Source: a virus
Strand: one strand, 5' to 3'
IMG/VR virus record: IMGVR_UViG_3300013114_000098
DNA length: 64,000 bases
Shown: positions 3,262-51,669 of the stretch, piece after piece
Layout of the letters: every line of letters starts with the position of its first letter
How positions within the stretch are numbered: the stretch's first letter is position 1
Program-made: the position numbers and the translations under genes
The notes under the pieces: generated by a model
The model's input: the letters and a program-made list of their open reading frames with translations, nothing else
Told to the model about the DNA's origin: nothing
Database searches by the model: none

Positions 3262-3546
3262 TTATTGTCCTATGTAAACATCTGGACTGCCCGAAGTAGC
3301 ATCTGGTCCACAGTGTGGTGGAATTGGGCAATAATTGTCTGCATCTGCTGGATTTCCATTTAGTACTACTAATTTTCCACCTACAAATACATTTCTGCAT
3401 TGTGCTTTTAAGGCACCATCGCCATGGTTGTTTGGATCACCATCTACGCTGATTGGTTGTGAATTGACAAACACGTTTTTATGTGCTGATGCTATTGTTG
3501 ATGCACCGCATTTACGTGAGTCTCCGTTTCTATGAACTTGTGGCAC
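3262..3546 (-). CDS. PAAR-domain spike tip protein
   Basis: 94 aa with HRNGD..CG, NVFVN...VDGD...H and terminal GSPDVYIG pattern. Confidence 0.85.
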   Translation of the reverse strand: MPQVHRNGDSRKCGASTIASAHKNVFVNSQPISVDGDPNNHGDGALKAQCRNVFVGGKLVVLNGNPADADNYCPIPPHCGPDATSGSPDVYIGQ

Positions 3547-8513: not shown

Positions 8514-9203
8514 TTATGATAAATTATAAAATTTCTCTAATCGTTGTGCCCATTTGTTTTCGTATTCTGGAAATTCATCTGGTCCACTTTCAAACAGTTG
8601 CCATTGGCAGTCACCACTACACATAAAAATAGCGATACGGTCAATTGTAGTGCCATACATTTCATTATGTGCATTTGCATAAGCGGCACCTTGTAGGAAA
8701 TAATCTTCAATCCATTCACGTCTTTTGGGTTTATTTGTTTGTTTAAAGTCCATAATAGTAGGCTCTCCTTTATACACACCAACTAAATCTGATGTACCTG
8801 CATATAGCTCTTTTGCTACTAAATTTACTTCTGTACCCCATATTTCATCTATATCATTTTCAATATTCTCAACCACAACTTGTGCCATTGCTTTTGCTTG
8901 TCTATGAACTATATTATTACCTGGATTATAAGTTTCATACTCACCTAATGCCCAGTGTTCTAATATATTATGCATTACTGTTCCCCTATTAGCGGCTATT
9001 GATGTAATACGTTGGGCTTCTGCCTCACCTACACGCTTACGCCAGGCGGCAAGTCCAGCACGTTTTTCTGCTGGTAGAGTATTACTTAATATTGTTGTGA
9101 CACTTGGAACTGGATCGCCCCATGGGTTTTGATATAGACGTTTTCCGTCTACACTAGTTCTTTTAAATTCTTGATAGGGGTAAGGGCTTTTAATGGTTGG
9201 CAT
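8514..9203 (-). CDS. PD-(D/E)XK exonuclease (MGME1/Cas4-like)
   Basis: PSVTTIL, RGTVMH, E, AGTSD, DFK, Q..AY motifs. Confidence 0.85.
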   Translation of the reverse strand: MPTIKSPYPYQEFKRTSVDGKRLYQNPWGDPVPSVTTILSNTLPAEKRAGLAAWRKRVGEAEAQRITSIAANRGTVMHNILEHWALGEYETYNPGNNIVHRQAKAMAQVVVENIENDIDEIWGTEVNLVAKELYAGTSDLVGVYKGEPTIMDFKQTNKPKRREWIEDYFLQGAAYANAHNEMYGTTIDRIAIFMCSGDCQWQLFESGPDEFPEYENKWAQRLEKFYNLS

Positions 9204-31836: not shown

Positions 31837-34800
31837 TTATGAAACTTTTCTTCGTAAACCAGTTAATATCGTTTCAGCAATGTTTTCAGTTTCAACTTCT
31901 TTTTCTTTTGCTGGTACTTTATTCTTCTGATCCAAGTATTTTACAATCTTAGCCATCATAATAACATGCTGATTTGGCAAGTTATACAATTCACTAGATA
32001 TTTGACTTAGTAAATTAAATACTTCGTCATTTTTACTATTCATTGCGAGATAAGATAACATTGACACTAACTTAGCCATTGCACCCTGTTCACCTGAGTA
32101 TTTAATTGGATCTTCATTGTCAGGATGTTCAGGATCATTTGGATCAATGTTAAGCTGAAAATCTTCCTTGTCTTTAATCATATCGTATACACGATTGATA
32201 TTAGTTTTAGTTAGATCTGTCATGCTATCTTTCTCTTTTACAATACGGGCTACTGTTTCTAAGACCGCATCCATATTCGCAGTCTTAAATGTATTGTACA
32301 TGAACTTGTCAGTTATGTCAACCGCTTCTTTATCATTTTCTTCTACAATCGCAGTAGATTGAGCCTGATAGGCGTTATAACCTCTAGAAGTTTGTAAACG
32401 TTTAACTGTACTCTTAAATTCTTTTAATTTCTCTTTAATAGTTTCAACGATATTTTCATTTCCTTCGTTAACTAATTTGTGTGAACGCACATGTCTCAAA
32501 AATTGAGTACATTGCGACACTTCTTCAGATAATTTTATAATTGATTCACCAATTGCATCATATGGTGTCCCACCATGGCTTACATGATTGGCCATAGCTC
32601 TTGCACCTTGTAAATATTTAAATGGGAATCTAAATCTTTCACCAGCACTATTTTCTACAAATAATGCTTTAATATTTCTACTTCTTGCACCGCGTTTTTC
32701 TTCATTTACAGCCGCTGAGTGCCTAATAATAAGTTTAGTTGCCTCAGGTAATTGTATATAACTTGTCTTAATACTTCCTGTTGCACGTGAATACCCTTCC
32801 ATAATTATTTTATGGTTTTTATCATTTTTGTCATGAACATCTGCTACAATAGCATCACCAAATCTAGATAAAACTACTATATCACTTGATTCAACTAGAG
32901 TTATTTCACTTGGGTCAAACTCTTCATCTTCTTGTTCTTCTGTTGCACCTTGTACAAGATGACCTGGAACATAACCTGCTCTATCAAGCATATCTTGTGG
33001 AGTATAAGTAACACTACCTTCTCTGTTAATAGTATCAACTGCTTCTTGAGCAAAACCCATATAATCTTCTTCTTGTGAGAAGAACCAACTCATAAAGTCT
33101 TTGAAACTTACTTTTAATTCGCCAGCTTCAGTAACTGTTTCTTCACCATAAAGACCACGCCTCTCATCTCTACGACGCTGTAATTCTTCATATTCTGACT
33201 CGTCTTTGTCTTCTTCGTCATCACCATAAAGACCGTGCTTCACATCTCTACGATGCTGTTCTTTTTCATCTTCGTCTTGTTCTGTTTTATTACTTTCAAA
33301 CATTTTTGAGTAATCTGATGAGTATTCTGCAATATTTTCACCTGGGAATAACACGTTAAATAATGCAGGGTCTTTTGATATTGAAACCTGGAAATAATAT
33401 ATCAAACTATCTCTGTCTTGAGTATCCATATAGTCTGGTTGCATCATATCTACAACATCCATATCGCCAGCATCCATCATATCATCTAGATGATTAACAA
33501 ATTCTTCACCTTCATCTGGATAATCTTCTGGATCATAATCAGTATGTTTTATTATTGCCGCTCTAACATTTTTAATGTGTGGTAAAAGTTGAGCGTGTGT
33601 AACATCATCTCTACCAGCTTCAATAATCTTCTGGCGTTCGCCATCTTTGACTGGCCTTATTTCAAAGGCATTTTCTCTCCATTTACCTGAGTCTCTATAT
33701 TTTTGAACAATTTTCTCTGCATCATCATATGTGACCCATCCTTGATGTACTTTAGCACCAGCAATCCAAACACCGTATTGCTTCTCTTCTTCTACTAACT
33801 TAACACCTGCTAATTCTTTTAATCTTCCAACTGCTTCTTTCATATCATATGCTTCCAAGTGTGCTACACCTGATGCCTGCATACCTTGTTCACTCCATTT
33901 AACATCTCTACCGACAATTTTACTAATACCGGCTTCAAATCCTTTATCTGTATAAATTTCCCAAGGACCATTATGTTCAACGTGTACTTCATACCATCCA
34001 TCATCGTGCTGTTCAACTGTAATATCTCCAACTGTTACATGATCTGCTTCCCACATTTCATCTTCAAGCCAAATACTATCACCTGCTAATTCAACATCTT
34101 TATTTACTTTTATTGTTTTATGGCCTTCGCCTGCTTTTGTATTAAATTCTGTTAATTCTTCTTCTGTTGATTCTGAATTAAAAATATTCTTATCACCTAT
34201 TTCGTTATTAGTTTTGCCATCACGTGGAACTTCAGTAGGTTCACCATCTGGAATTTTACTTACGTCAAACTCACCTGCTGGTGAATCATCACCTCGTTGA
34301 CGTTTAAGATCTGGATCTCTTGGATCCATACGTCTAAACGGATGAGGACCTTGCTCTAGAGCAAAGTCAGGATACATTTCAACTGCTTTAGCATAAATGT
34401 CTGGATGATCATTTTTTAGTTTAGTCTTGTGTTCTGTATTTGCTTCATCAGTTAATCCTGCCATACGAGATTCCATATCGCCTGCCCACATTTCAAGTGA
34501 CCATTGTTCTTTATCTTTATCAAGTTGCGGGTGCATACTTGCAAGACCATATTTTGGAACTGGAGCTGAGCCTTCAATATCTGCACCTTGTGGTGGCATT
34601 TCTGCTTCGTTCCATTCATCATATGTAAGTACTTTGCCTGTATCACCGTCTGAATAGTTTCCTTCTCCTGGATTATAATAAATTACACGACCCGAATGAG
34701 TCGCAATAGGACCATACTGCTTTTTATTTGCTGGATATTTTTTTGGATCTGGCTCTGGCAAACTGCGATCCCAATTTACATTTCGTCTGCTTCGATATTC

Positions 34801-35193
34801 AGTAAGTTCTTTTTCTTCGGTTTTAATACCTGATAGTTCTTTTAATCTAGTTATTAATTCACCTTCTTCGTTTACTACATCGTGAGCAAAGTCTTTTGGT
34901 TCAATATTTTTATCAAATTTTCTAATGTTATATTCTGCCATTGCATTATGTCCTGCTTTCTTAATACTATCTAATAAATCTTTATGTTCATTAAAGTTAA
35001 AACTAGCTCCTGCCTGTACAACTAGTTCAGTTAGATCATCCTCTTCTCTTATTGTAACTAAAAAATCCTTATCGTAAGCATAAAATCTAGCTGAACGCTC
35101 AGGATCTAGTGTTTTGTTTCCTGCTGGATCAAACAATTTTAATTTAATGTTTGCTCCTTTGAGAATGTTAAAAATTTCTTGCGATAGTTGCAT
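31837..35193 (-). CDS. Large modular head/internal protein (putative polyprotein)
   Basis: 1118 aa; globular-looking ends with about 690 aa of acidic modules between; two RLKELxG motifs; late promoter. Confidence 0.6.
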   Translation of the reverse strand: MQLSQEIFNILKGANIKLKLFDPAGNKTLDPERSARFYAYDKDFLVTIREEDDLTELVVQAGASFNFNEHKDLLDSIKKAGHNAMAEYNIRKFDKNIEPKDFAHDVVNEEGELITRLKELSGIKTEEKELTEYRSRRNVNWDRSLPEPDPKKYPANKKQYGPIATHSGRVIYYNPGEGNYSDGDTGKVLTYDEWNEAEMPPQGADIEGSAPVPKYGLASMHPQLDKDKEQWSLEMWAGDMESRMAGLTDEANTEHKTKLKNDHPDIYAKAVEMYPDFALEQGPHPFRRMDPRDPDLKRQRGDDSPAGEFDVSKIPDGEPTEVPRDGKTNNEIGDKNIFNSESTEEELTEFNTKAGEGHKTIKVNKDVELAGDSIWLEDEMWEADHVTVGDITVEQHDDGWYEVHVEHNGPWEIYTDKGFEAGISKIVGRDVKWSEQGMQASGVAHLEAYDMKEAVGRLKELAGVKLVEEEKQYGVWIAGAKVHQGWVTYDDAEKIVQKYRDSGKWRENAFEIRPVKDGERQKIIEAGRDDVTHAQLLPHIKNVRAAIIKHTDYDPEDYPDEGEEFVNHLDDMMDAGDMDVVDMMQPDYMDTQDRDSLIYYFQVSISKDPALFNVLFPGENIAEYSSDYSKMFESNKTEQDEDEKEQHRRDVKHGLYGDDEEDKDESEYEELQRRRDERRGLYGEETVTEAGELKVSFKDFMSWFFSQEEDYMGFAQEAVDTINREGSVTYTPQDMLDRAGYVPGHLVQGATEEQEDEEFDPSEITLVESSDIVVLSRFGDAIVADVHDKNDKNHKIIMEGYSRATGSIKTSYIQLPEATKLIIRHSAAVNEEKRGARSRNIKALFVENSAGERFRFPFKYLQGARAMANHVSHGGTPYDAIGESIIKLSEEVSQCTQFLRHVRSHKLVNEGNENIVETIKEKLKEFKSTVKRLQTSRGYNAYQAQSTAIVEENDKEAVDITDKFMYNTFKTANMDAVLETVARIVKEKDSMTDLTKTNINRVYDMIKDKEDFQLNIDPNDPEHPDNEDPIKYSGEQGAMAKLVSMLSYLAMNSKNDEVFNLLSQISSELYNLPNQHVIMMAKIVKYLDQKNKVPAKEKEVETENIAETILTGLRRKVS

Positions 35194-35234
35194 TATAGTA
35201 TTCCTTTAATGTATTTATCAAGATGCATTGAAAA

Positions 35235-35450
35235 TTACTTTCTTTTGAAGCCTTTATACCGCTTATGAAACTGCTCTACACGACCTTCAGTATCCATAAT
35301 TCTAGTTTTACCTGTAAAAAACGGATGACATTTTGAACATACATCTAATTTCATTGTTTCTTTATTAAGAGTTGACCGAGTTTCGAACGTAGCACCGCAT
35401 TGGCATACAACAGCAATGGTCTTGTATTGAGGATGGATATTCTTCTGCAC
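35235..35450 (-). CDS. rpmE: Ribosomal protein bL31, Zn-binding type A
   Basis: KNIHPQY..CQCG...RST...LDVCSKCHPFFTGK....GRVEQF. Confidence 0.95.
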   Translation of the reverse strand: MQKNIHPQYKTIAVVCQCGATFETRSTLNKETMKLDVCSKCHPFFTGKTRIMDTEGRVEQFHKRYKGFKRK

Positions 35451-35478
35451 TCATCTTGTCTCCGATATACACTATTTA

Positions 35479-37035
35479 TTATAATAAACTAAAAGGCATT
35501 GGTTCCATGCCATCGGAATCTTCAAAATCATCATTTAAATAATCAAATGCTTCTTCTTCATATTTAGATACTTCCATACTCATACGTACAATTAAATTAA
35601 CTGCCATTACAAGGTCATCTGTTTCACCAGATTTTGCAGAATAACTATTACCTTTTGCTATAAATGTTTTTAATTCTCTTAATAATGGTTTACTTGCTAC
35701 TTCTAATTTTTCTGTTTCTACCCAATGTTTTAACTTTGCACAAGCAGATATTTTGGCTTTGTGTGTAGTAGTAAACCCTCTTCTATAGCGTTTAGCATTA
35801 CCATGTTGCCTTGTTTCAGTTAAAAATGTTCCTGGAAAATTTTCTTCGCCTTGTTCTTCTACAACAACTAATGCGGCTTCACCTAAGGTATTGTTCTCTA
35901 CACTGTAGTAAATTTCACAATCACCGTTAGATTCAGTATCAATATGTTGTGCTATTTCTCGCAAAATTTTTATCTGTCCTTGTACAGTTGTTCTATTGTG
36001 CATCCATTCTGCTATTTGTTTCATACCTGGCATACTATATACTTGTATAGCACTATTATCTCCACCTGTACCTAAACTAGGATCAAGTCCTATCATATAC
36101 AATTTACCTTTAGCAACTGGCGAATACCAGCGTACCTGTCCAGATATAGCGTATGGATCACGTGCTTTCATATTAGCAAGTTTAATACTATCAATTAATG
36201 TTTCATCATACGCAATAAATTCACATTTATGTTCACGTCTAAATCTTTCTTCACCTATTTTACCATATTCAAGATCTGCCCATTCTTGATCTCTTTCTGG
36301 ATGTCTTTCCCATGTAGCTAGATAATGTGCAAATCCATTTACGCCAGTATCTGTTTCAATACCATATTCATCAATGTTTTTATTCGCATCTCGCCAAATT
36401 TGTGCAAACTGATCATCATCCATATTAGGTGTGCTTGTAATAATACATTTACCACCTGTTGCTAATGTGGGAGACAGTGAAGTCCAAAATTCTTTTGCTA
36501 CATTTGGACGGACAAATGCAAACTCGTCTAAATATGCTAATGAGATACTTAAACCTCTTCCTGTATTTTCTGTTGTACTTTGTGCAATAATACGTGAACC
36601 ATTATCAAACTCTAAACTACCTTTGTTGTATGCTGTTACACCAGCACGTATATAATCTGGTAATGTTTCGTATGAGAATCGTACACGTTGCATAATTTCT
36701 GATGCACCTGCATATTTGTGTGCCGCTACTAATATAGTTTGATCTGGATTAAACATTGCATACCATAGCAAATATCCTGCCGCACAAGTTGACTTACCCA
36801 TTTGTCGTGCCAGCATATTAATACTGTATCTATTGTTGTGATATACGTCAACTAATTCGTCTTGAAAGTCATATAAATCAAATCTTAACCTGCCTTTTAC
36901 AGGATGTTGAATATAACAATGCTTACTCATAAAGTATTTGGGATCATCTGCACATCTAGCAAGTTCTAAAAGTTGCTCTTCTGTGTACTTTTCTCTTCTA
37001 TACGGAGTTTTTGTTAATTTAGTATCTACTGACAT
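35479..37035 (-). CDS. terL: Terminase large subunit
   Basis: LYDFQ, ARQMGKS, LDEFAF, TSTPN, GLDPS, DDLVMA; start MSVDTK by TAATG overlap. Confidence 0.95.
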   Translation of the reverse strand: MSVDTKLTKTPYRREKYTEEQLLELARCADDPKYFMSKHCYIQHPVKGRLRFDLYDFQDELVDVYHNNRYSINMLARQMGKSTCAAGYLLWYAMFNPDQTILVAAHKYAGASEIMQRVRFSYETLPDYIRAGVTAYNKGSLEFDNGSRIIAQSTTENTGRGLSISLAYLDEFAFVRPNVAKEFWTSLSPTLATGGKCIITSTPNMDDDQFAQIWRDANKNIDEYGIETDTGVNGFAHYLATWERHPERDQEWADLEYGKIGEERFRREHKCEFIAYDETLIDSIKLANMKARDPYAISGQVRWYSPVAKGKLYMIGLDPSLGTGGDNSAIQVYSMPGMKQIAEWMHNRTTVQGQIKILREIAQHIDTESNGDCEIYYSVENNTLGEAALVVVEEQGEENFPGTFLTETRQHGNAKRYRRGFTTTHKAKISACAKLKHWVETEKLEVASKPLLRELKTFIAKGNSYSAKSGETDDLVMAVNLIVRMSMEVSKYEEEAFDYLNDDFEDSDGMEPMPFSLL

Positions 37036-37730
37036 TAATATCTCCCAAACGCCCATTCACGTTCTTTACACCACCAACATTTTTTACAATGTGTAACCAT
37101 TTTATCAGGTTGATCTGTATTTTCTTCAGCATGTTGTTCACAACTTCTTGTATATGGAAATAATTCTTCTATCATATTAAAATGCTCATATAAATGTGCT
37201 ACCATACGTTTATCAACTGCCATAAGTGGCGTCCAACGTGTAATTCCTGGTACATATTCCTTTAATATAAGTCTACCATGTCCTGGATCACGTGGTTTAT
37301 GTCTATTATTTATAGTATCAAACTTAACATCTAACGGAGGATTTTGTGTAGTACCATGTAATGTAAAGGTTATACCATGCAAATCTTGTTGCATTTTTTC
37401 TGTATCATCAAGTTCTGATCTAATTTGATCGGTACTATAAAATGTATAATGACTTTTAATTAGTTTTGTTCCTGTGAGCTGGAGTACTCTATTAAGTACT
37501 CTAGTACTCCAGTTAGCGTTATACCACCCCTTAATAGGGTTAGCAGACGTTATAACATGCAGTTCTGCCTCTGGTATATATTGCTCACAGTATTGGATTA
37601 GCATCAATAATAATATGGCACTATCTGCACCACCTGAGATGTTAATACAAATCTTGTTATGAGGCTTTGGTACTGTAAATTCTATATTCTGACCGAAATT
37701 ATCCGTATATGTTTCAATAGGCCTTTTCAT
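37035..37730 (-). CDS. QueC-like PP-loop ATPase
   Basis: ISGGADS and TRSC...HCKKCWWCKER. Confidence 0.75.
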   Translation of the reverse strand: MKRPIETYTDNFGQNIEFTVPKPHNKICINISGGADSAILLLMLIQYCEQYIPEAELHVITSANPIKGWYNANWSTRVLNRVLQLTGTKLIKSHYTFYSTDQIRSELDDTEKMQQDLHGITFTLHGTTQNPPLDVKFDTINNRHKPRDPGHGRLILKEYVPGITRWTPLMAVDKRMVAHLYEHFNMIEELFPYTRSCEQHAEENTDQPDKMVTHCKKCWWCKEREWAFGRY

Positions 37731-37746
37731 ATTACTATTTATAAAG

Positions 37747-37780
37747 AAAAACGGCGTAGTTAATTAAAACCACACCGTTT
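37747..37780 (-). terminator. Intrinsic terminator
   Basis: 13-bp stem with G-U pairs on the minus strand, then a U-tract. Confidence 0.75.
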
Positions 37781-37809
37781 AATTTTCACCTGGGAGGAAA
37801 CGTGAACTT

Positions 37810-38691
37810 TTATTTTTCTTTTGACTTTTTGTATGCTTCTCTAATTTCTTCAACTGTATGTTCTTTTAAGCCTACTTTGAAATTTTCTGCATCTAAATAC
37901 TTCTTCAAACTTAGGTTAACGCTTTGTGCAAAATTTTCGTATGGTTCACCATGTGATGTAGCTTCATCTTCAGCCGCACCTTCTGGTGTATTTGCCCATT
38001 CATTTAATTTTGTTTGAATTAATTCTTCGCTTAAACCTGCATTTCTAAGTAATGTAATTAATTGAGTTGTGTCCATTGTTGGAGCCTCCTCTATTTTTTC
38101 TTCTGTAACTGCATTGCATCCACAACTGCATTCTGGACCACAATTACAATCTGAACCATGCCCACATGAACAGTCTTCAGTTATAGTTTCTTCTTTCATT
38201 GCTTTTTTAATTGCTTTGTCTTTAGCTGCCATGTAATCATCTGAATCAATATCACCGTCTTTATCGTGATCTTTTTTCTTACCTTCTTCTACTGGCTCTT
38301 CTGCTACCATGTCTACAGGAGTTTTATTTGTTATTTTTTTCTTTTTACTTAACTGTTCTGTTTTAATTTCTTCTTCTGCTGGTGCTTCTTCTGCTGGTGC
38401 TTCTACACTCTCTTCAGCATGTCCGCCTTCTGGCATATCGTGGTTTCTACGGAAATTTTCAACAAATTCTGTTATATCTTGTCCGCTCATCCAACGTGCC
38501 ATTTCATCAACTAAAATATTATCTTCAAGACCTAATTCGTCTTGTAAATCATATAATGGTTGAGAAAATTCACCAACTGCTTCTTTTGTTACTGGTACTT
38601 CTTTTAATTCTCTTTCTGCTGGAACTTGGCTTTGAGCATCATTGTCTATGCCGTGTCTAGCAAGGGTTAATATTCTGTCTAAATCACTCAT
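37810..38691 (-). CDS. Acidic modular head/internal protein
   Basis: EF-hand-like and Cys-rich modules bounded by x-x-E linkers. Confidence 0.55.
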   Translation of the reverse strand: MSDLDRILTLARHGIDNDAQSQVPAERELKEVPVTKEAVGEFSQPLYDLQDELGLEDNILVDEMARWMSGQDITEFVENFRRNHDMPEGGHAEESVEAPAEEAPAEEEIKTEQLSKKKKITNKTPVDMVAEEPVEEGKKKDHDKDGDIDSDDYMAAKDKAIKKAMKEETITEDCSCGHGSDCNCGPECSCGCNAVTEEKIEEAPTMDTTQLITLLRNAGLSEELIQTKLNEWANTPEGAAEDEATSHGEPYENFAQSVNLSLKKYLDAENFKVGLKEHTVEEIREAYKKSKEK

Positions 38692-41951: not shown

Positions 41952-44399
41952 TTAAGCTAATTCGCCAGTATTTACAATTCTAATTGGAATGTAAATGAAT
42001 TCTGCTGATTTAGTTGGCTCAATTGCCACATCAACATAAAATTCATTAGCATCTATTCTTGCCGCTGTATTGTTTGTTTCATCACATACAACTGCAAAGT
42101 CGTAAACACCACGTTGTTGCATAATATTTGATAAAAATCCATCAAATGTTGCTTTAGCGTTTGCACGAGTTCCTGCGTCATTAGTTTCAAATAAGTAAGG
42201 TCTTGCAATAACTGCAAAACGTTCTCTTAAATAAGCCGTAAGTCTTGCAACGTTAACTCTGTCTAATGCTGATGCTGAGGCGTGCATTGACTTTTGTCCA
42301 AATACTACAACGCCATCTGAAGGGAATTTAGCAATTGGATTAAGTTTTTGTGCATACATTGCATCTCTAGATCCTTGAGTTAATGATAGTTTAACAAACT
42401 CATTTTCAGTATTCAAATAACCAACGTTAGTTGCATTTTGTACAACACCACGTGTTAAGCCTGCTGGTGCAAACCATTGGTATGATGCATTATCGCTGTA
42501 AGCATATGTATACAATGCTATGTGTGATGCTGGTGCAACAACATTATCACCCGTTGCTGGGTTAGTTGTTAATGCATGTGGATAATAAACAGCACTATAA
42601 GTATTTGCTGTTACTAGTCCAACTTCACCATTTTCTGTTGCAGTTGTACCTTGTTTCCAAGCTACTGCTTCAGTTGCATTTAAACGGAATGGAGCGTCAA
42701 CAATAATAAATGCTGTTTCGTCTCTGTCTGCGTTTAATGTTACCATTTCATCATATAACTCTGTATAACTTGGAGCCGCAATTAAACGGAATGCTACAGT
42801 ATCTTCACGTAGTTCTGCAACTGCCGCTGATGCCTGCATAGCTGTTGTAACAACTCTACGCTGACCTAATCTACCAAATGAACCTGAGCCATTTGCTTGA
42901 TTACTAGCTTTGTTACGCCATTTCCAAGTTGTTGATAATGTTGAATCATATTCTCTAACAGTTCCGCCTGAACGACACATATTAATACCTGTCATTCCTA
43001 CTGGATGTGTAAGTGGATTTGGAGCACCTGCTAATAGAGTTGCTTCAAACGTGTCTGCAGTTGTATCATTAGCTGTAATATCGCCAAATGTAACACCTGC
43101 CGCTGTAGTTTGATCTGCGTTGTCTTTAACAACCCATGCTGTACCGTTATGTCTGTAAATTACAGGATAACCACTTGCATCTGTATCAACCCAATAGTCG
43201 CCGTCTGCTAATGCCGCACCGCCAGTATCTGTAGTTGGTGCTGTTGTTGTGTATTGTACATCTGCGGCTCTTTTCCATTTTTGTACTCCTGAATCAGCTT
43301 CTACTTCGTAGACTGCTAATTCGTTTACATCTGGATCATACCAAAGTGTACCAGTTACTGGTGCACCAGATGGTTGTGTTGTCGAAACTGACATTACAAA
43401 ACCGCCTGTTGCTACTGTGGCATCTGTTGCAATATTGTCCCAATCAGATTGTACACTATCATAACGTTTTAATACAATTTTACCACTTGTACCGTTTTGT
43501 GCATCATGGTCTAACCAAATGTCTCCATCTGAGAAAGAACGTGCTGTTGCTAATGTTCCGTCAGCAAATACGTCTGCTGTAGTTCCTGCTGGTGTACCGT
43601 TTTGTGCATATACAGGAGCTTTCTTTACGAATGCACCTGCTACGTCTGTAAATAATTGTGGGTCAATTACAAATCCGCCTGGAGTTGTAGTTTTAATCCA
43701 AACATCACCACCTGTTGGTGAAGTTGGTGCTGTATAATGTGCTGACCAGTTAACATCGTCTGAGAACCCATTGTCTAATAGATCCCAAGCACCTGATACA
43801 CCTTTATAATAATAAAATGCTGTTTCAGTTGCACTGTTAACTATTTCAACTAGGTAATTGCCGTTAACTACTGTGGCCGTTGCCGCGCCTGCTGTAGTTA
43901 CAACTTCAACTGTTGGAGTTTTTTCTAACCAAGCACCGTTAGTATATTCGTTTATACCAAATGTAGCACCTGTTGGATTTATCCAATATGTGTTATTTGC
44001 AGGGTCACCTGTTGGTGCCGCTGACTGAGGTCTAAGTTGTGATAAGTTCACGTCAGCACGTACTATGTACGCCGCTGCACTTTGACCTAAAAATGAATAT
44101 GCTGCCAATAATCCGTATTCATTTGTTTCGTCACCTTGTTGAACTGTACCACCTACTTTATGAAAATCGCAATTTCCAAAGTATTGTGTTAGTTCACGTT
44201 GTGAAGTAACTAGAATAGGTTTGTTTGAATTCGCAGACTTCGTATATTTTGCAATGCCGTCTGATTCAGTTAGGGTTGGATCAACCTTGTCCTCACCAGT
44301 AGCAATGAATAACATAGGAACTGTACCCGCTCCGCCAGGACCGTATACTGATTCGTCTGTTACTGAAACCTGTACGCCAGGTGAAGTAAGATTTGCCAT
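41952..44399 (-). CDS. Tail sheath protein (gp18-like)
   Basis: SPGVQV..DES, WFAPAG..RG, LNPI, GQKS, RVNVARL, CDETNN, PTKSAEFI. Confidence 0.95.
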   Translation of the reverse strand: MANLTSPGVQVSVTDESVYGPGGAGTVPMLFIATGEDKVDPTLTESDGIAKYTKSANSNKPILVTSQRELTQYFGNCDFHKVGGTVQQGDETNEYGLLAAYSFLGQSAAAYIVRADVNLSQLRPQSAAPTGDPANNTYWINPTGATFGINEYTNGAWLEKTPTVEVVTTAGAATATVVNGNYLVEIVNSATETAFYYYKGVSGAWDLLDNGFSDDVNWSAHYTAPTSPTGGDVWIKTTTPGGFVIDPQLFTDVAGAFVKKAPVYAQNGTPAGTTADVFADGTLATARSFSDGDIWLDHDAQNGTSGKIVLKRYDSVQSDWDNIATDATVATGGFVMSVSTTQPSGAPVTGTLWYDPDVNELAVYEVEADSGVQKWKRAADVQYTTTAPTTDTGGAALADGDYWVDTDASGYPVIYRHNGTAWVVKDNADQTTAAGVTFGDITANDTTADTFEATLLAGAPNPLTHPVGMTGINMCRSGGTVREYDSTLSTTWKWRNKASNQANGSGSFGRLGQRRVVTTAMQASAAVAELREDTVAFRLIAAPSYTELYDEMVTLNADRDETAFIIVDAPFRLNATEAVAWKQGTTATENGEVGLVTANTYSAVYYPHALTTNPATGDNVVAPASHIALYTYAYSDNASYQWFAPAGLTRGVVQNATNVGYLNTENEFVKLSLTQGSRDAMYAQKLNPIAKFPSDGVVVFGQKSMHASASALDRVNVARLTAYLRERFAVIARPYLFETNDAGTRANAKATFDGFLSNIMQQRGVYDFAVVCDETNNTAARIDANEFYVDVAIEPTKSAEFIYIPIRIVNTGELA

Positions 44400-50694: not shown

Positions 50695-51669
50695 TTATTC
50701 CATTTTTTTGATCTTGTCTTCAAATTCACGTAAACGTTTGTATACACTAGCCAACTCAATAATAGTAGGCCATGCTTTAAACAAATATTGAAGTGATCCT
50801 TCAACACGTCCGAATGCACGTAAAATCTGTTGCATTACACCTAAAGTCATAACTCCTGCAATAATTGCAGGTGCTAAGAAGATGTATCCTGCTAACACGT
50901 TAGCCTGCAAGTATGCAAGTCGTCCTATGTTAAAATACAAATATCTTAAATAACTCTTATAATGAATTTTTCTTACACCATCAAACAGCTCTTCTAAAGA
51001 CTTTGGTCTTGTAGTTCCATCGTCCTCTGCAATAACAAGTATTTTTCGATAAGCCGCTTCTTTCTTCTGTAGATCATATTCAATGCCTACAAGTCTTAGT
51101 AACCATGCTAGTACAATCATTAAAACTGTACCACCTACAGCCCAAATGAGTGCACCAGATACTAATCCATATTCCCAATCGCCGAACCATAATATTGGAA
51201 TACCAACACTTAGACCCATTAATAGTGGGAAGAATTCTACAAGTACCATGACACTCTCAATTAAAGCAGTGCCGAGTCCTTCCATAATTCTACTGAATTT
51301 TATTGTATCTTCTTGTACACGTTGAGCCGCACCTTCAATAGTACGTGCTTTATCGTATACAGCATGATACCATTCAACCATACTGGCACGCCAACGGAAT
51401 AAAAAGTGTGCAGTTAAGAAGCTGGTAGCTAATCCTAACACAATCCATAACACCGCTAACTTACCGAAACTGGCTAAACTTCCCCAATAGTCGGCCGCTG
51501 TAATAGCATTTGGGGATCCTAATGCTGTTTGAATCATATCATAGAAACCGCCAAACCAATGGTTAATTTGAACATCGATTTGAACTGATAACCATAAAGA
51601 TGATAAAATTACGGCTGAACCAAGATAGGCCCAAAGAGCCCATTTCTTAGATTTGAAAAAATTAAACAT
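50695..51669 (-). CDS. sbmA: SbmA/BacA-family peptide transporter
   Basis: INHWFGGFYDMIQ, FRWR, IEGAAQRVQEDT, QKKEAAYRK.LV.AEDD, W.TIIEL.SVYKRLREFE. Confidence 0.9.
   Translation of the reverse strand: MFNFFKSKKWALWAYLGSAVILSSLWLSVQIDVQINHWFGGFYDMIQTALGSPNAITAADYWGSLASFGKLAVLWIVLGLATSFLTAHFLFRWRASMVEWYHAVYDKARTIEGAAQRVQEDTIKFSRIMEGLGTALIESVMVLVEFFPLLMGLSVGIPILWFGDWEYGLVSGALIWAVGGTVLMIVLAWLLRLVGIEYDLQKKEAAYRKILVIAEDDGTTRPKSLEELFDGVRKIHYKSYLRYLYFNIGRLAYLQANVLAGYIFLAPAIIAGVMTLGVMQQILRAFGRVEGSLQYLFKAWPTIIELASVYKRLREFEDKIKKME

Follow-up and report, generated by a model that had tools for sequence, protein, structure and literature searches.

What a gene for ribosomal protein bL31 is doing beside the terminase gene of a marine virus, and how its product could act in the infected cell, are the questions raised by a short ORF in IMG/VR virus record IMGVR_UViG_3300013114_000098. 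In the 64,000-nucleotide stretch that we analyzed (the window), the rpmE-like ORF occupies positions 35235..35450 on the minus strand and encodes 71 amino acids between a GTG start and a TAA stop codon. The Pfam Ribosomal_L31 profile (PF01197) matched it with 109.3 bits (E 1e-31; cut-off 27) and aligned end to end, residues 1-66 of the protein spanning positions 1-65 of the 65 in the profile. The zinc-ligand cysteines Cys16, Cys18, Cys38 and Cys41 (CxC ... CxxC) are kept in 19/19 phage copies of the protein. These four cysteines characterize type A bL31, and type B lacks them. The ORF itself, the Pfam score and the four cysteines bear out the description of an intact four-Cys bL31 after terL given in the initial annotation, and confirm 35235-35450 as a real, intact type-A gene within the late/structural module of the phage. 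An out-of-frame ATG sits four bases 5' of the GTG, and among the bL31 genes of relatives the homologous start codon is GTG, TTG or ATG.

Structural comparisons led to the same protein class. In a search of solved structures, the best matches covered residues 1-70 and were to type-A bL31 chains (E 3e-26 to 1e-20), and type-B chains matched much more weakly (E 1e-5 to 6e-12). An AF2 model built from a 47-sequence alignment (pLDDT 72.7) has a three-stranded N-terminal ribbon (strands 10-16, 21-26 and 32-35) and a C-terminal helix (58-65); the moderate confidence is as expected for a protein that would lie extended on the ribosome. Foldseek searches of the PDB with this model returned 49 matches at E<=0.001, by title chains in ribosome structures, with TMq values of 0.47-0.65. 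Further, the core of the protein is unchanged in all 19 phage copies, including H6, P7, Y9, C16, C18, G19, C38 and C41 and, beyond the last cysteine, H42, P43, F44, G47, D53, G56, R57 and F61.

Database records of phage-borne bL31 call for caution. Searching 50,697 phage records with tblastn gave 27 hits, 28-60% identical, none of them from the genome of a named isolate in this lineage or usable as a relative. Many of the matching records were short unannotated contigs, and some bore bacterial organism names or carried both rpmE and rpmE2. The 'phage' records CAKLQF020000018.1, CAKLQH020000005.1 and AFYI01000005.1, for example, carry rpmE (one also rpmE2) and resemble mislabelled bacterial contigs; 'phage bL31' database hits therefore need context checks. 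Two IMG/VR hits (L005 and L006; 53-62% G+C) likewise look like host DNA and group with Bifidobacterium and Oscillospiraceae. Such records raise the question of whether the locus in the window could itself be chimeric, or come from bacterial DNA that contaminated a viral bin. The locus differs from them, however, in having phage hallmark genes within 30-45 nt of either end, an even G+C content (0.31-0.37 near the gene, ~0.35) and a bL31 that belongs to a clade of its own, apart from every bacterial sequence. The terL-bL31 junction, with a spacer of 28-32 nt, also recurs in nine further contigs, all from different samples and independently assembled (L001/L131, L002, L090, L091, L092 from a Tara sample, L093, L132, L133 and L134), and marine or seawater metagenome contigs from at least eight studies contain 39-100% of the sampled words of window positions 34000-38000. 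On these grounds (uniform G+C, flanking hallmark genes, nine independent junctions) we rejected chimerism and contamination, which we regard as extremely improbable; the initial annotation had named a chimeric assembly as the finding that would overturn it.

The surroundings of the gene are those of a large tailed phage. Nearly all window genes are on the minus strand, as is bL31. Immediately upstream (28 nt) lies terL (35479..37056, minus strand), which encodes the large terminase subunit and matches Pfam Terminase_6N and Terminase_6C. A gene for a protein of 1118 amino acids (31837..35193, minus strand) starts 41 nt downstream of bL31; the initial annotation called its product a polyprotein, and its PHROG family (phrog_13484, E 1.5e-20) carries the label virion structural protein. 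Homologues with the same N-terminus (MQLSQEIFNILKG...) were found downstream of terL in all inspected relatives, and span 418-810 amino acids where complete (sizes noted in L136, L145, L150, L154, L157, L170, L175, L188, L189, L193, L207). Given the shared N-terminus and a size range from 418 to 1118 amino acids, the version in the window is a much-expanded form. The tail sheath gene (41952-44399, minus strand) and genes for two tail-tube proteins, head closure, a head-tail adaptor, and several tail-fibre and virion structural proteins indicate by their homologies that the window encodes a myovirus. Interleaved with these are replication and nucleotide metabolism genes (gp32-like, UvsX/RecA-like, DnaB-like helicase, primase, NrdA/B). 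No tRNA genes were found in the window.

Among isolates, the closest TerL proteins are those of the Pseudomonas jumbo phage PA5oct (53% identical), Atu_ph07 (48%) and Rak2-like phages (45%). PA5oct shares the local gene order (tail tube, tail tube, structural, head closure, ..., terL, structural proteins verified by mass spectrometry) yet lacks bL31. CheckV completeness estimates for long related contigs translate into genomes of ~360 kb. From these TerL matches and size estimates, the carriers appear to be marine jumbo-type myoviruses to which PA5oct (Arenbergviridae) is related. Several other ORFs of the window deserve mention. A 231-aa ORF upstream of and overlapping terL (37035-37730, minus strand) has a weak C-terminal match to QueC (PP-loop); it is kept in close relatives and missing from that position in PA5oct. 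Two genes upstream of bL31, an acidic 293-aa ORF (37810-38691, minus strand) contains a Cys-rich stretch (CSCGHGSDCNCGPECSCGCN, ~38110-38175) and matched no family. Beside the NrdA/NrdB genes, a 94-aa ORF (3262-3546, minus strand) has a PAAR-motif match of 27.3 bits, at the threshold. A 324-aa ORF (50695-51669, minus strand) has a full-length match to SbmA/BacA-like proteins of the inner-membrane transporter type (PF05992, E 1.5e-129); examined as a second host-like gene, it had no match in five Thioglobaceae-like genomes.

The region in front of bL31 carries its own expression signals. A GGAG Shine-Dalgarno sequence (35460..35463, minus strand) was read from the sequence 9 nt before the GTG and is invariant in four aligned terL-context sequences and also in L131-L134. 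A promoter-like ATAAATA of the T4-late type (35473..35479, minus strand) lies 29 nt before the start codon; its first base is the last base of the terL stop codon, and it is invariant across the terL-context relatives. The stretch TTATAATAAATAGTGTATA(T)CGGAGA(C/T)AAGATG(A/C)GTG is nearly invariant at the terL-bL31 junctions, whereas the coding region has accumulated many synonymous changes, so that the upstream region is better conserved than the coding sequence. The presence of an ATAAATA (35473) and a GGAG sequence dedicated to bL31, already pointed out in the initial annotation, is thus upheld by the sequence and by its conservation in relatives. A perfect TATAAT (35478-35483) overlaps the promoter motif. 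Within the last codons of terL, a consensus scan identified a putative terminator-like hairpin and T-run (35495..35511, minus strand) before the bL31 motif; its stem is preserved in L001 by a C-to-T (G-U) change. No terminator was identified after bL31.

Whether ATAAATA means more than AT-rich DNA depends on where it is found. The window-wide total is not above chance (30 copies found, 45 expected), but 25 copies are on the coding strand and 5 on the other, and 18 of the 25 are concentrated 8-74 nt upstream of ORF starts, in regions that make up 6.6% of positions (binomial P ~2e-16). No other 7-mer is as frequent in these upstream regions, and those of the same composition occur there six times at most. 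In its extended form, approximately (T/G)ATAAATA(C/G), the motif dominates among the upstream elements of the phage and is found 25-55 nt before many coding-strand ORF starts (for example at 8517, 12132, 22018, 39213, 46743, 48487, 58637 and 60943). This highly non-random placement argues for a genuine T4-late-promoter-like element. The genes behind it include those for the sheath, adaptor, tail-fibre and virion proteins and bL31. The initial annotation had spoken of a late promoter. The enrichment upstream of structural genes agrees with that designation; the octamer at bL31, by contrast, is AATAAATA and departs from the T4 consensus TATAAATA, and the motif also precedes a gene for a DnaB-like helicase. 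Late timing would follow by analogy with T4 and from the association of the motif with structural genes. T4-type late transcription uses a dedicated late sigma factor and co-activator (gp55/gp33). None of the window ORFs, which represent part of a ~360 kb genome, was annotated as a gp55- or gp33-like factor in PHROG and Pfam scans. Contigs from four marine metatranscriptome runs, 90-99% identical to the region and possibly including DNA carry-over, cover the structural gene and portions of terL; bL31 is covered only in places.

The distribution of bL31 among related phages identifies it as an accessory gene. A TerL-based scan recovered 80 related viral contigs (TerL 65-97% identical), and bL31 followed terL in four of them, each time at a distance of 31-32 nt and all with TerL at least 92% identical. 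The other 76 had no bL31 within 2.5 kb of terL; in a few of these, the sequence past terL is shorter than 1 kb. Long fragments from relatives (10 sequences of 70-205 kb, 19-56% complete) gave no PF01197 match either. Synteny in related phages, which the initial annotation had suggested as a check, is therefore not conserved, and bL31 is an optional insert in a narrow subclade. In one type of relative without the gene, terL is followed directly by GATAAATAC and the structural gene; in two others, an ORF of 341-359 amino acids or a pair of ORFs (344 and 271 amino acids) is inserted. The terL junction (window 35194-35478; L131-L134, L197, L209) can thus be empty or can hold bL31, a 341-359-aa ORF or a 247-271-aa ORF, alone or in combination. 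The 341-359-aa ORF has the motif MNN.Y.SWCKW.PLKT..., and Pfam searches found nothing significant in either class of alternative insert (341-359 and 247-271 amino acids). Such varied contents mark the junction between terL and the structural gene as an insertion hot spot, with bL31 as one of several optional cassettes. The same GATAAATAC provides a second ATAAATA in the window (35212..35218, minus strand), 25 nt before the virion-protein gene, and (G)ATAAATA(C) is found just 3' of terL in many inspected relatives without bL31; by this comparison, the downstream copy is the ancestral promoter-like element of the junction.

Together, the presence/absence polymorphism and the dedicated ATAAATA and GGAG sequences characterize bL31 as a moron-like accessory cassette. 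As in lambdoid morons, one small gene that brings along a promoter-like element and a ribosome binding site is located between genes that are adjacent in relatives, and its presence is polymorphic. Unlike in lambdoid morons, no terminator was found after bL31, and the motif is of a phage late type rather than host sigma-70, albeit overlapped by the TATAAT.

The gene also occurs in a second genomic context. A second bL31 group of the same phage clade, 74% identical (L003/L004, L087-L089, P0011, P0016), follows a small ORF and has no ATAAATA in front. The neighbours there (L087 1-16216; L088; L089; L003) include genes for radical-SAM/SPASM, NifU and IscA-like (Fe-S_biosyn) proteins, the aspartate decarboxylase PanD and a carbamoyltransferase; Pfam searches of the small neighbours returned nothing significant. 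The phages of this second group also have estimated genomes of ~360 kb. One of their contigs (127 kb, estimated to be 35% complete) has, besides bL31, only one detectable gene in common with the window, and no terL or sheath homologues were found on L003/L004, fragments that are 35% and 17% complete. Persistence of bL31 through relocation or exchange argues for selection rather than hitch-hiking.

We traced the origin of the gene by comparison with bacterial rpmE. A protein search retrieved about 16 clusters 66-86% identical to the phage protein, all metagenomic, followed by bacterial bL31 at no more than 66%. In a tree of 164 sequences, the phage proteins grouped together next to metagenome-assembled genomes (MAGs) of small-genome Gammaproteobacteria. 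A focused tree that added bL31 from 30 relatives of one such MAG (1.0-2.2 Mb; local G+C mostly 0.27-0.42) recovered the phage proteins as monophyletic (UFBoot/SH-aLRT 98/89) within a clade shared with the donor bacterial family (100/97). When the bL31 proteins of named Thioglobus and Ruthturnera were included, they fell within this phage-plus-family clade, then supported at 83/98. The alignment has only 71 columns and leaves the branching order inside the clade without resolution. We assigned a name to the donor family by indirect means, using the adjacent hemE gene and bL31 homologues. In one family member, the hemE beside rpmE is 72-75% identical to those of Ca. Pseudothioglobus singularis, Ca. 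Ruthia and a clam symbiont, and the bL31 is 67-70% identical to those of Ca. Thioglobus sp. NP1 and Ca. Ruthturnera. A single phage clade nested in the Thioglobaceae (SUP05/ARCTIC96BD-19) indicates one old capture and also provides a host clue, as the initial annotation had anticipated of a phylogeny against bacterial rpmE; the trees, hemE and the bL31 homologues all lead to this family. The G+C content of the phage (0.345) fits Thioglobaceae-type hosts. These comparisons point to the Thioglobaceae as hosts, as a clue and not as proof.

Since its capture, the protein has evolved under purifying selection. Pairwise dN/dS values (NG86) for five phage copies were 0.04-0.23; between the genomic contexts, dS was close to saturation or past it. 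Some changes are nonetheless shared by all 19 phage copies relative to the donor family. Residues 49-51, which lie in the inter-domain segment that follows the zinc ribbon and precedes the C-terminal helix, are Ser, Arg and Val instead of Gln, Lys and Ile (Q49S, K50R, I51V). The phage proteins also carry Lys3, Lys10, Lys66 and Met33 and are extended by one Lys at the C terminus. Because the phage copies share these differences from the donor family, the protein could have a modified function and not be a simple replacement. Several of the clade-specific states are, however, also found in ordinary bacterial bL31 and therefore give no evidence of a new function.

Replacement of bL31 by a zinc-free paralogue under zinc limitation, which the initial annotation brought into its interpretation, found no support here, because five genomes of the donor family contain a single PF01197 match each. 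All donor-family bL31 proteins examined are of the four-Cys type. Nothing suggests a switch between C+ and C- paralogues in these hosts, and the phage supplies the type of bL31 that the host itself has. A search for the Rfam L31 leader found none in the window region, nor at the phage or donor-family loci.

In bacteria, bL31 is a small, basic, loosely bound and non-essential protein that joins uL5 in the central protuberance to uS13, uS14, uS19 and h42 of the 30S head, forming bridges B1b/c (PMC7297116). The explanation we favour, and consider probable, is that the locus encodes a functional bL31 that was captured once from a Thioglobaceae-type bacterium, kept by selection and carried as a late cassette whose product replaces or tops up the host protein. 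The donor would have been a marine gammaproteobacterium of the SUP05/ARCTIC96BD-19 type, with purifying selection acting afterwards in marine jumbo-type myoviruses. The position of the cassette between terL and a virion gene and its own ATAAATA make transcription with the late genes most likely. Host bL31 can be exchanged and is only loosely attached; the phage copy could enter the 50S central protuberance by its N-terminal zinc ribbon and reach the 30S head (bridges B1b/B1c) with its basic C-terminal tail. By topping up or replacing host bL31, it would prevent 70S ribosomes from dissociating and keep them working during the synthesis of structural proteins. The sequence comparisons establish what the gene is, that it is intact and phage-borne, its origin, the selection on it, its accessory status and the promoter-like motif; late timing, incorporation into ribosomes and a benefit to the phage we infer. 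Remodelling or stabilization of 70S ribosomes, proposed in the initial annotation, is a reasonable expectation. Counting against this explanation is that the lineage can dispense with the gene, as shown by the 76/80 contigs without bL31 near terL.

A nearly neutral passenger, acquired from a host by recombination at a hot spot and of no use to the phage, would suit the restriction of bL31 at this site to a narrow subclade and the unrelated inserts, or none, that the junction holds elsewhere. Against this, the clade is old enough for dS to be saturated between contexts, yet dN/dS stays at 0.04-0.23 and the frame is intact in all 19 clusters; the gene is also found in at least two unrelated genomic contexts and behind a nearly invariant upstream control region. 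We consider neutrality quite improbable for these reasons. Nor do we think it probable that the protein works outside the ribosome, as an RNA-binding repressor or zinc handler that, for example, shuts off host rpmE or buffers zinc. The E. coli protein does repress its own translation through a Lys-rich N-terminus (PMC7297116), and the phage copies have Lys fixed at positions 3 and 10. Metal-related neighbours are also present in both contexts (the QueC-like gene and the Cys-rich stretch in the window; NifU, IscA-like and radical-SAM genes in the other). However, a role in repression or zinc buffering alone needs neither the ribosome-contact core nor the C-terminal tail, both of which are conserved, and the L31 leader of Rfam was unmatched in donor-family and phage loci.

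An effect on the ribosome other than replacement is somewhat easier to entertain, though still unlikely. A variant bL31 could compete with that of the host and alter bridge B1b/c, and in doing so block 100S formation in slow-growing hosts or bias ribosomes to phage mRNAs. The clade-wide substitutions in the inter-domain segment and the terminal Lys would suit such an anti-hibernation or specialized ribosome, and viral bL31 and HPF homologues have been proposed to interfere with ribosome dimerization (PMC6375957). The jumbo phage PhiKZ also targets the central protuberance, by means of an unrelated protein (PMC10914614). On the other hand, F45 and R50 are present in ordinary bacterial bL31 as well, and every core position is unchanged. 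A related and rather doubtful scenario is that of a mobile, late-expressed variant (S49/R50/V51 and terminal Lys) that moves between jumbo phages and re-tunes the B1b/B1c bridge of Thioglobaceae ribosomes. If true, one possible effect would be that slow-growing or hibernating ribosomes are held as active 70S for late synthesis. Capture of a functional bL31 that replaces or supplements that of the host is the reading that we carry forward.

How does this locus compare with known systems? Mizuno et al. (2019; Nat Commun 10:752) reported bL31 on 15 viral contigs, all aquatic, with a pN/pS of 0.14, and at least two host-to-virus transfers were inferred (PMC6375957). The suggestion in the initial annotation that bL31 is uncommon in phages is fair for isolates, given the 27 tblastn hits, but less so for the aquatic viruses catalogued in 2019. 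A search of full-text literature found no phage-bL31 paper after that report. The viral bL31 proteins of that study resemble ours in family, aquatic or marine habitat, purifying selection, and inferred acquisition from a host and replacement of an exchangeable protein. Theirs is a catalogue entry of 15 contigs, and the present lineage may be among them. With that reservation, what the sequences add to the catalogue is a jumbo myovirus related to the Arenbergviridae as carrier, the Thioglobaceae as donor family, and a moron-like terL hot-spot cassette with a late-type motif, presence/absence in relatives and a second context. Compared with bacterial type A bL31 (RpmE), the phage protein is alike in full-length homology, four cysteines, length, basic C-terminal tail and predicted fold; it differs in lacking the host gene surroundings, in residues 49-51 and in the extra C-terminal Lys.

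Other phage products that act on ribosomes offer partial parallels. The bS21 and bL12 proteins of phages (HTVC008M and others) are likewise small, peripheral and exchangeable ribosomal proteins; their sites are the 30S platform and the stalk, whereas that of bL31 is an intersubunit bridge at the central protuberance. In huge phages, bS21 expression is tied to late replication (PMC9723584). Incorporation into ribosomes has been demonstrated only for viral bS21 and bL12 (PMC6375957). The PhiKZ014 protein of PhiKZ is a jumbo-phage product at the 50S central protuberance (PMC10914614), and its likeness to bL31 is one of functional analogy only: PhiKZ014 is made immediately on infection, clamps the 5S rRNA end and has no homology to ribosomal proteins (PMC10914614).

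Phage-borne bL31 has itself been known since 2019, and the locus is a well-documented further example; as the phenomenon is already published, its surprise value is modest. Phage ribosomal proteins indicate that viruses tinker with the core of translation, and only bS21 and bL12 have been tested experimentally. The bL31 locus brings together a likely host family, the Thioglobaceae, with cultured members, a defined cassette, near-isogenic relatives with and without the gene, and clade-specific substitutions. These four assets would make the action of a viral bL31 on the ribosome directly testable.
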